A stretch of 60,471 bases of DNA from a virus (taxonomy: Duplodnaviria; Caudoviricetes), in IMG/VR virus record IMGVR_UViG_3300027971_000003, positions 1 to 60,471 of that record; one strand, written 5' to 3'. Numbering within the stretch: position 1 is the stretch's first letter; each line of letters begins with the position of its first letter. Of this stretch, positions 17,101 to 17,246 are shown one piece after another. The position numbers were made by a program, and so were the translations under genes. The notes below the pieces were generated by a model. That model did not search any database, was not told where the DNA came from, and saw only the letters and a list, made by a program, of their open reading frames with translations.

Positions 17101-17151
17101 AATGAGAACGTTCTCATTATGATTGACACGGGAAATGAATACAAGTAATCT
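17101..17151 (+). promoter_or_regulatory. 18-bp palindrome plus near-consensus sigma70 promoter
   Basis: AATGAGAACGTTCTCATT 17101-17118; TTGACA(17123)-N17-TAATCT(17146-17151). Confidence 0.65.
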
Positions 17152-17156
17152 AAGCC

Positions 17157-17246
17157 TGTCCAATGGAATTGAGCCTCCAAACGATGACCGGTTTCCGCTC
17201 CTCTCTCCCAACCGGTCGAGAACGCCCCTTCACTGGGGCGTTTTCA
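17157..17246 (+). ncRNA. Candidate ~90-nt sRNA with anti-RBS sequences
   Basis: Own promoter; TGAGCCTCC at 17170-17178; hairpin GACCGGTT/AACCGGTC with C/U-rich loop; intrinsic terminator; no plus-strand ORF. Confidence 0.6.
17221..17246 (+). terminator. Intrinsic terminator
   Basis: AACGCCCC-ttcact-GGGGCGTT followed by a T-rich tail. Confidence 0.75.

Follow-up and report, generated by a model that had tools for sequence, protein, structure and literature searches.

Known regulatory RNAs encoded by phages are few and come mostly from a handful of model phages of enteric bacteria, as noted in PMC12197685. In this study we analyze a Caudoviricetes genome, IMG/VR record IMGVR_UViG_3300027971_000003 (hereafter the window, that is, the whole stretch of 60,471 bp, a complete virus record with direct terminal repeats), and in particular the unit at positions 17123-17249, which we consider, with a probability of about 0.75, to be the gene of a trans-acting small RNA (sRNA) blocking translation of an early replication regulon. 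The nearest analog in logic would be the c4 RNA of phages P1 and P7 (immI). The c4 RNAs of these two phages and their targets differ together, defining two immunity types, and the same pattern of phage-type-specific RNA and target variants is seen here in at least seven seed variants that have matching target sites. As described in PMC8198154, full repression of ant requires the C4 antisense RNA (citing Citron and Schuster 1990), and c4 shares the operon c4-icd-ant with its targets. Like the present sRNA as predicted, c4 is phage-encoded and blocks genes of its own phage by pairing at the ribosome-binding region. It controls one transcript from within its own operon, whereas the present sRNA has its own convergent promoter and terminator and matches up to nine separate genes, chiefly those of replication. 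As regards likeness in sequence or structure, Rfam 15 at gathering scores yielded no match of any family in the whole window. A model of c4 is among the families held by Rfam.

Several other systems share some of these features. CopA of R1, the Inc RNA of IncB/I plasmids, and RNAII of pMV158 present a recognition sequence in a loop and block translation of the replication initiator, with an RNA dosage that rises with the plasmid copy number; they are transcribed opposite the target leader and are fully complementary to it. Unlike these cis-antisense RNAs, the candidate sRNA gene (17158-17246) lies 1.4 kb from the primase-helicase start (15708), with three open reading frames (ORFs) in between, and would pair over 9-14 nucleotides (nt) only and with several targets. 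In Firmicutes, C-rich unpaired loop motifs of RsaE/RoxS and RNAIII pair with the G-rich Shine-Dalgarno sequences of several messenger RNAs (mRNAs). To our knowledge, these sRNAs are host-encoded and have no extension marking a private set of targets, whereas the extension found here (C-U-N-A in the mRNA) would restrict pairing to genes of the same phage and varies between phages. In phage T4, the RegA repressor and the RegB nuclease shut off many early mRNAs post-transcriptionally at their ribosome-binding regions; these factors are proteins, while here the specificity factor would be an RNA. Finally, STnc6030 of prophage BTP1 excludes the same phage by pairing with phage mRNA, and escape mutants map to the paired region (PMC12197685); it is described there as a 786-nt cis-antisense RNA to a structural gene, while the present sRNA would be short, trans-acting, and directed to ribosome-binding sites (RBSs). 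What appears to be new here is a base-pairing, RBS-directed RNA with a phage-specific, evolvable extension that would define its regulon.

The unit is located in the 203-nt gap between the RusA and DUF7696 genes and has the following parts.

17123-17249, plus strand: sRNA unit, ORF-less
17123-17151, plus strand: sigma-70-type promoter, TTGACA (17123-17128), 17-nt spacer, TAATCT (17146-17151)
17157-17248, plus strand: predicted small RNA of about 85-90 nt, with hairpin P1 bearing the seed, hairpin P2, and terminator P3; match of covariance model R1
17170-17178, plus strand: seed TGAGCCTCC, the anti-Shine-Dalgarno CCUCC with the extension UGAG, in the apical part of P1
17186-17217, plus strand: P2 hairpin, stem GACCGGTT (17186-17193)/AACCGGTC (17210-17217) of 8 bp, 16-nt C/U-rich loop TCCGCTCCTCTCTCCC
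17220-17249, plus strand: P3, intrinsic terminator, G+C-rich hairpin (17220-17242) followed by TTTTCATTT

The promoter, the terminator, and the ORF-less character of the unit had been proposed in a sequence-only reading of the window, and all were recovered at the same positions. On the plus strand, the RNA is predicted to fold with an energy of -36.7 kcal/mol (z-score -4.89, compared with -2.46 for the other strand).

The sequence complementary to the seed, GGAGGCTCA, occurs in eight exact copies in the window, compared to 0.54 expected, and none of 100 shuffles reached eight. One copy is the antisense copy in the sRNA unit, and the other seven sit 0-4 nt upstream of an ATG, confirming the earlier observation that the nonamer at 17170-17178 complements the RBSs of seven genes. 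The exact sites and one probable site are listed below (protein lengths in amino acids, aa).

15709-15717, minus strand: primase-helicase RBS, 11-nt match running into the ATG (gene 14044-15708)
8899-8907, plus strand: RBS of the 510-aa AAA ATPase (gene 8912-10444)
8248-8256, plus strand: RBS of the 190-aa protein (gene 8259-8831, phrog_6361)
7286-7294, plus strand: RBS of the 116-aa protein (gene 7297-7647); the orthologue in G015 also has the site
7742-7750, plus strand: RBS of the 135-aa ORF (7753-8160)
10486-10494, plus strand: RBS of the 350-aa ORF (10497-11549)
13316-13324, plus strand: RBS of the 167-aa ORF (13326-13829)
17089-17097, minus strand: probable target GGAGGCTCG, DUF7696 RBS; one mismatch, pairable as G.U (8 Watson-Crick pairs and one G.U)

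Two near matches had also been reported, and both are present: the one before 17086 is the DUF7696 site, with one mismatch, and the other, at about 12931-12933, is GGAGGCTTG, with two mismatches. In the closest relative, L032, the DUF7696 RBS contains an exact GGAGGCTCA. When the start regions of the phage were ranked by the energy of the duplex with the 5' part of the sRNA, the top 9 of 76 were the seven exact sites, DUF7696, and one near match; all nine fall within 7.2-17.1 kb (the early module) and none in the structural module. A chance origin of these matches, or the reuse of one strong RBS cassette combined with an unrelated hairpin-rich spacer that holds the complement, would be a far-fetched account. 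It agrees with the lack of enrichment of the motif with one mismatch (19 found, 13.7 expected), but not with the excess of exact copies, nor with the conservation of the RNA family and the joint changes of seeds and targets described below. As a separate observation, the target genes at 7297 and 8912 both encode proteins starting with MNKINL, the rest of the two proteins being unrelated, and a similar small hairpin (CTGACGAGGTCAG) is located about 15 nt upstream of the RBS of both genes (7258-7311 and 8871-8926).

The sRNA unit is a member of a conserved, previously undescribed structured RNA family. For comparison we used the best 80 of 374 IMG/VR stretches related to the window by a RusA search (loci L; the G027 stretch, L261, was omitted from the analyses). 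Covariance model R1, built from 18 relatives with the window and its closest kin excluded, matched 57 of 81 sources (the window and 56 of the 80 loci), each of them just once and at full length. The matches are always antisense to RusA and directly follow the RusA gene, being on the minus strand in the 56 loci and on the plus strand in the window, where the match covers 17157-17248 at full model length (27.3 bits, E-value 4.3e-4). The gene anatomy is conserved in most of the stretches: a promoter, hairpin P1 with the loop (G/A)AUU(A/G)AGCCUCC, a small hairpin P2 (mostly GACC-AGUA-GGUC), and a terminator hairpin with a U-tract. In the R1 alignment, 89.7% of the pairing cells are paired compared with 71.7% in shuffles (none of 500 reached the observed value), two-sided changes occur in 16 of 17 stem pairs, and compensatory changes are seen at all seven pairs of P3; the covariation score of 0.428 compares with 0.130 for shuffles (0 of 500) and with no more than 0.079 for slid partners. 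Independently of this alignment, the seed flanks forming the P1 stem pair better with their own partners than with those of other members (-4.79 and -2.15 kcal/mol, respectively; 0 of 2000 permutations). RNAalifold applied to a plain MAFFT alignment recovered the terminator stem only, because the arms of P1 and P2 were out of register.

P2 is kept as a hairpin in 46 of 50 unique members. The sequence-only reading had pointed to its C/U-rich loop as resembling the loops of anti-Shine-Dalgarno sRNAs; such a loop is indeed present in the window, but the long C/U-rich form is confined to few relatives, and 21 of the 46 unique members with the hairpin carry AGUA as its loop. The C/U-rich loop was rejected as a second seed, its longest complements in the window being two 9-mers without a pattern and the loop itself not being conserved. 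A CsrA-sponge reading was also discarded: by eye, the loops of most members contain no GGA motif.

Searches for known counterparts of the RNA were negative. Rfam models applied by E-value to 16900-17450 gave two sub-threshold matches on the wrong strand (24.6 bits with a cut-off of 64, and 14.5 with a cut-off of 40), an Rfam scan of six relatives gave no match on the sRNA, and a literature search that included the seed sequences, supplementary listings not being covered, found no description of this RNA. The Rfam scan also revealed the Betaproteobacteria-1 RNA (RF02932) at 69-86 bits (cut-off 49.4) in five of the six relatives, on the RusA/primase strand and about 300 nt beyond the sRNA (L046:3772-3895, L069:1079-1203, L079:3911-4032, L099:3782-3903, and L101:3734-3852, plus strand of the loci); these matches are a possible clue to which hosts the relatives infect, and RF02932 has no match in the window. 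Relatives without the AGCCUCC-type RNA (L067, L088, L095, L096, L073, and L092) have other promoter-hairpin-terminator units in the same place and orientation. These carry different C-rich loops, for instance UAACUCCCUU, for which no clear match was found at the primase or exonuclease RBS of the same six relatives.

As the nonamer of the unit can be read on either strand, the functional copy could in principle be the one on the opposite strand. There, GGAGGCTCA at 17178-17170 would serve the RusA-to-primase mRNA as an RBS-like site: the start of a small ORF, a standby site, or a site for a phage regulator protein that recognizes GGAGGCUNA everywhere, with the hairpins being mRNA structure. We regard this as unlikely. 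In its favor, fold energy fails to separate the strands, the sense strand being lower in only 19 of 50 unique members, the TTG located 6 nt after the motif in the window opens 39 codons, and one protein binding all copies would also make them change together. On the RusA strand, however, there is no start codon within 0-10 nt after the motif in 33 of 50 unique members, so that the minus-strand ORF considered at the outset does not explain the motif; the remaining members have ORFs of 2-64 codons that are unrelated and have no common frame. Since the start codons are mostly absent and the leftover ORFs unrelated, the minus-strand ORF is removed as an alternative. In general, no conserved ORF was found in the unit, by count on the RusA strand and by eye from aligned sequences on the sRNA strand. 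The opposite-strand account also leaves unexplained the conserved signals of a transcription unit. In 30 of 54 unique contexts, compared to 1.4% of shuffles, the seed is preceded at a constant distance by a promoter that agrees with the consensus at 10 or more of 12 positions. On the sRNA strand, 48 of 50 unique members have a T-tract after the terminator hairpin, and on the other strand none of the 50 has one. The promoter and T-tract signals, rather than the fold energy, decide for the sRNA strand. Further, the complementarity to the primase start region exceeds the 9-mer on both sides, reaching 14 nt, and therefore fits RNA-RNA pairing and not a shared protein site.

The seed and its target sites change together among the relatives. 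The seeds have UGA, UAA, or UUA before GCCUCC, and the variants GCCCCC and GCCUCU also occur; the commonest are UAAGCCUCC, UGAGCCUCC (the window), and UUAGCCUCC, and the rarer ones are UAAGCCCCC, UGAGCCUCU, UUGGCCUCC, and AAAGCCUCC. The primase-helicase RBS follows the seed class in 42 of 44 rows (UGAGCC with GGCTCA in 8 of 8, UAAGCC with GGCTTA in 28 of 28, and UUAGCC with GGCTAA in 6 of 8; L051 is omitted from this count). At least seven seed variants have matching target sites. For instance, in L045 the seed TTGGCCTCC pairs with GGAGGCCAA, which is found at the primase gene as well as at the exonuclease gene, TAAGCCCCC pairs with AGGGGCTTA in the GCCCCC clade, and AAAGCCTCC pairs with GGAGGCTTT at the exonuclease gene of L055. 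In L033, the seed TGAGCCTCT pairs with AGAGGCTCA at the primase gene, so that the Shine-Dalgarno sequence is weakened and the pairing kept. In L063, the exonuclease homologue seems to start at an ATT straight after GGAGGCTCAA, so that the start codon may be unusual or the start may have been set wrongly.

The longest run of perfect complementarity of the loop to the primase start is on average 9.02 nt for own pairs and 5.04 nt for phages with another seed, and 33 of 44 own pairs have a run of 9 nt or more, compared to 36 of 1458 cross pairs (0 of 5000 permutations); the longest one, of 14 nt, runs into the start codon. For the exonuclease start, the respective lengths are 7.72 nt and 6.08 nt (0 of 5000 permutations). 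These complement-length figures include a mis-picked loop in L051 and mis-estimated primase starts in L044, L054, and L060. Full contigs were fetched for 20 relatives, and G007, G008, G010, G011, and G017, which have no AGCCYCC-type RNA, were excluded from the resulting matrix of 16 whole contigs. In this matrix, the complement of the contig's own seed gives 34 RBS matches in 16 cells, compared to 10 in 64 for the four other variants. Among 14 contigs (G002 and G006 being additionally omitted), orthologous genes are targets under differing seeds: primase-helicase in 12, the AAA ATPase in 9, the 190-aa protein in 5, and the exonuclease in 4-5. At least 14 seed changes are required on the 57-row exonuclease tree, the least possible number being 8, and independent contrasts on well-supported branches gave eight informative pairs that are concordant, none opposed, and two without a difference.

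Hence the covariation of the seed and the RBS extension expected from the sequence-only reading does occur in the relatives and, together with the conserved RNA family, upholds its proposal that one sRNA pairs with the RBS and the non-16S extension of early and replication genes. The notion of a barcoded RBS is not borne out in its original form: the barcode is essentially one variable nucleotide. The 3' end of the host 16S ribosomal RNA, another possible source of the extension, was rejected, because close relatives have different extensions. Pairing with the known 16S tail would call for GGAGGUGAUC and not for GGAGGCUNA.

The co-variation also bears on a purely local function. In the window, the sRNA gene is inserted in antisense orientation into the leftward replication operon, separating the RusA gene from the other genes, and could be a cis-acting antisense and terminator unit that uncouples RusA from the downstream genes, either by convergent transcription or by RNase III cleavage of a perfect duplex with the RusA read-through transcripts, the distant RBS matches being a by-product. 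Read-through transcripts of this minus-strand operon would be fully complementary to the sRNA, and the position directly after RusA is constant. Such a unit, however, would leave unexplained a match, limited to the loop, to up to nine start regions located 1.4-10 kb away, as well as the target sites that follow the seed in the relatives. As a replacement for trans-acting repression it is improbable, and both modes could coexist.

We suggest the following mechanism of trans-acting repression. Host RNA polymerase would make the sRNA from its own promoter, and the intrinsic terminator of the unit would end it; the near-consensus promoter suggests constitutive synthesis. Hairpin P1 would display UGAGCCUCC, that is, the anti-Shine-Dalgarno CCUCC and an extension absent from 16S ribosomal RNA, and its loop would pair with GGAGGCUCA in the initiation regions of the primase-helicase and six to eight other early genes (7.2-17.1 kb). 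As the duplex would cover the Shine-Dalgarno sequence and reach to or into the start codon, the 30S subunit could not bind, and translation of the regulon would be shut down. The variable nucleotide is in apical P1, and the stem is predicted to engage part of CCUCC in its base pairs, suggesting that recognition may begin at the variable part of the loop.

The sequences show the conserved anatomy of the gene, its structure with compensatory changes, and the joint changes of seeds and target sites; that the RNA is produced, that it represses its targets, and when it does so, we infer. The opposite sign of regulation, with the sRNA activating or stabilizing the mRNAs, for instance by shielding GGAG from a nuclease or by opening an inhibitory fold, has in our estimate little chance of being correct. 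Pairing alone leaves the sign of the effect unset, and the targets at 7286 and 8899 are preceded by a similar hairpin; still, the predicted duplex covers the Shine-Dalgarno sequence and reaches the start codon, which is the standard geometry of sRNA repression, and no conserved inhibitory structure was found at the targets.

Several observations weigh against the trans-acting repressor, besides the fold energies considered above. The window copy ranks with the weakest family members: three of the six positions of its -10 box match the consensus, its P1 stem amounts to only -2.1 kcal/mol, and its score against the covariance model is 27.3 bits. A simple scanner reported neither the promoter nor the terminator of the window sRNA, because TAATCT matches the -10 consensus at three of six positions and the T-tract is interrupted. 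The exonuclease RBS of the window (GGAGTCTCC) has lost its match to the seed, though the exonuclease is a target in relatives, and in the clade of L056, L064, L066, and L074 the seed is present while neither the primase nor the exonuclease RBS matches it. There are few phylogenetically independent contrasts, and no single trait is significant (p 0.25-0.5). The sRNA and primase genes are neighbors and could be exchanged jointly as one module. Discrimination between seed variants may be modest, because the variable part is mostly one nucleotide. The R1 alignment was fitted to the model structure, which favors that structure. Finally, contigs from three metatranscriptome runs and one run of unclassified kind, all with small shares, cover 16600-17132 and 17502-17800 and nothing of 17133-17501; this is in fact neutral, as the contigs are short, of low depth, and from relatives that are 90-99% alike, and contigs cannot reveal a small RNA.

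The transcription of the sRNA gene could itself be regulated. Upstream of its promoter there is one more element.

17101-17118: 18-bp perfect palindrome AATGAGAACGTTCTCATT (GAACGTTC palindrome), operator-like, matching its own reverse complement

It ends 5 nt upstream of the -35 box, and its core GAACGTT/AACGTTC recurs in 22 of 54 unique relatives, where it precedes the seed by no more than 120 nt. No family was found by Pfam in ten small ORFs examined as candidates for the palindrome regulator. A leftward promoter-like sequence, TTGTAT-N17-CATAAT (found by eye; 8 of 12 consensus matches), overlaps the sRNA promoter and faces the DUF7696-to-primase genes; judged by eye, it would begin transcription within the palindrome. 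The palindrome and the overlapping opposed promoters suggest a possible transcriptional switch, and the region 17101-17151 may thus be an operator-controlled switch between the sRNA and the operon it would repress.

The genes around the unit are organized as follows.

17290-17706, minus strand: RusA gene, head of the leftward replication operon
16832-17086, minus strand: DUF7696 gene, leftward replication operon, after RusA
between the DUF7696 and primase-helicase genes: 150-aa protein and HNH-like protein, leftward replication operon
14044-15708, minus strand: primase-helicase gene, leftward replication operon
from 17706: PD-(D/E)XK exonuclease gene, with Erf, rightward recombination operon

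Other products of the window include portal, terminase, and tail-fibre proteins as well as an integrase of the tyrosine-recombinase type (22696-23553). The divergent start codons of the two operons overlap, the RusA ATG being at 17706-17704 (minus strand) and the exonuclease TTG at 17706-17708 (plus strand), and a good rightward promoter, TTGCAT-N17-TATTAT (17651-17679), is located inside the first RusA codons, with the same layout in relatives. A single ORF of 2962 codons (24858-33746, minus strand) heads the structural module. The 8-bp palindrome GTTTAAAC occurs in 44 copies in the window, compared to 1.04 expected and 0 of 100 shuffles (for example, at 7278-7285, 17272-17279, and 17523-17530); it is found in and between genes and is also frequent in the intergenic DNA of relatives.

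Among deposited GenBank phages, there were no DNA matches to 16000-18500 or 17080-17300, and no deposited phage protein is more than 33% identical to the primase-helicase. A scan of genome contigs with a seed-plus-P2 pattern, covering the commonest P2 variant only, revealed no prophage copy and gave three matches. One of them is a true relative, a 2.9-kb contig with RusA, exonuclease, and Erf from an archaeon-labelled bin, which we read as a mis-binned phage fragment; the other two, in high-G+C DNA, were dismissed as chance. An exact 15-mer scan of IMG/VR gave at least 90 stretches, read as 91 sites on L112-L201. Among the matches listed, the contigs of L032 and L063 are the sole homologues; by eye, many other sites resemble one conserved coding segment, and the rest are unrelated.

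Several roles of the sRNA fit the data: a late shut-off of early genes, a dosage feedback on replication, or immunity against relatives with the same seed. The lysis-lysogeny or timing switch proposed in the sequence-only reading would likewise be conceivable. That the variable nucleotide has been reset repeatedly, and that several targets have followed each time, is most easily accounted for if specificity itself is under selection. We tentatively consider a further possibility, though the odds are against it, in which the sRNA would determine immunity or incompatibility, as an RNA-only device, in a large group of uncultivated freshwater phages that are probably temperate or episomal. The resident genome would make the sRNA constitutively, and the sRNA would silence the primase-helicase and other replication genes of an incoming relative with the same barcode, the latter being one nucleotide next to the Shine-Dalgarno sequence. 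An arms race between co-infecting relatives would have left its trace in the at least 14 barcode changes among 57 relatives, which all targets would have followed, and the palindrome with the overlapping divergent promoters (17101-17151) could be the transcriptional half of the same switch.

A whole RNA family of uncultivated phages thus emerges from sequence alone, with its targets identified by co-variation. If our interpretation is correct, a phage can single out a private set of genes by briefly extending their Shine-Dalgarno sequences and control them by one RNA, and this mark can be reset many times in evolution. The natural pairs of RNA and RBS variants constitute a ready set for tests of orthogonality in a laboratory strain, and the system may account for the timing of replication or for the exclusion of relatives in a widespread group of environmental phages.

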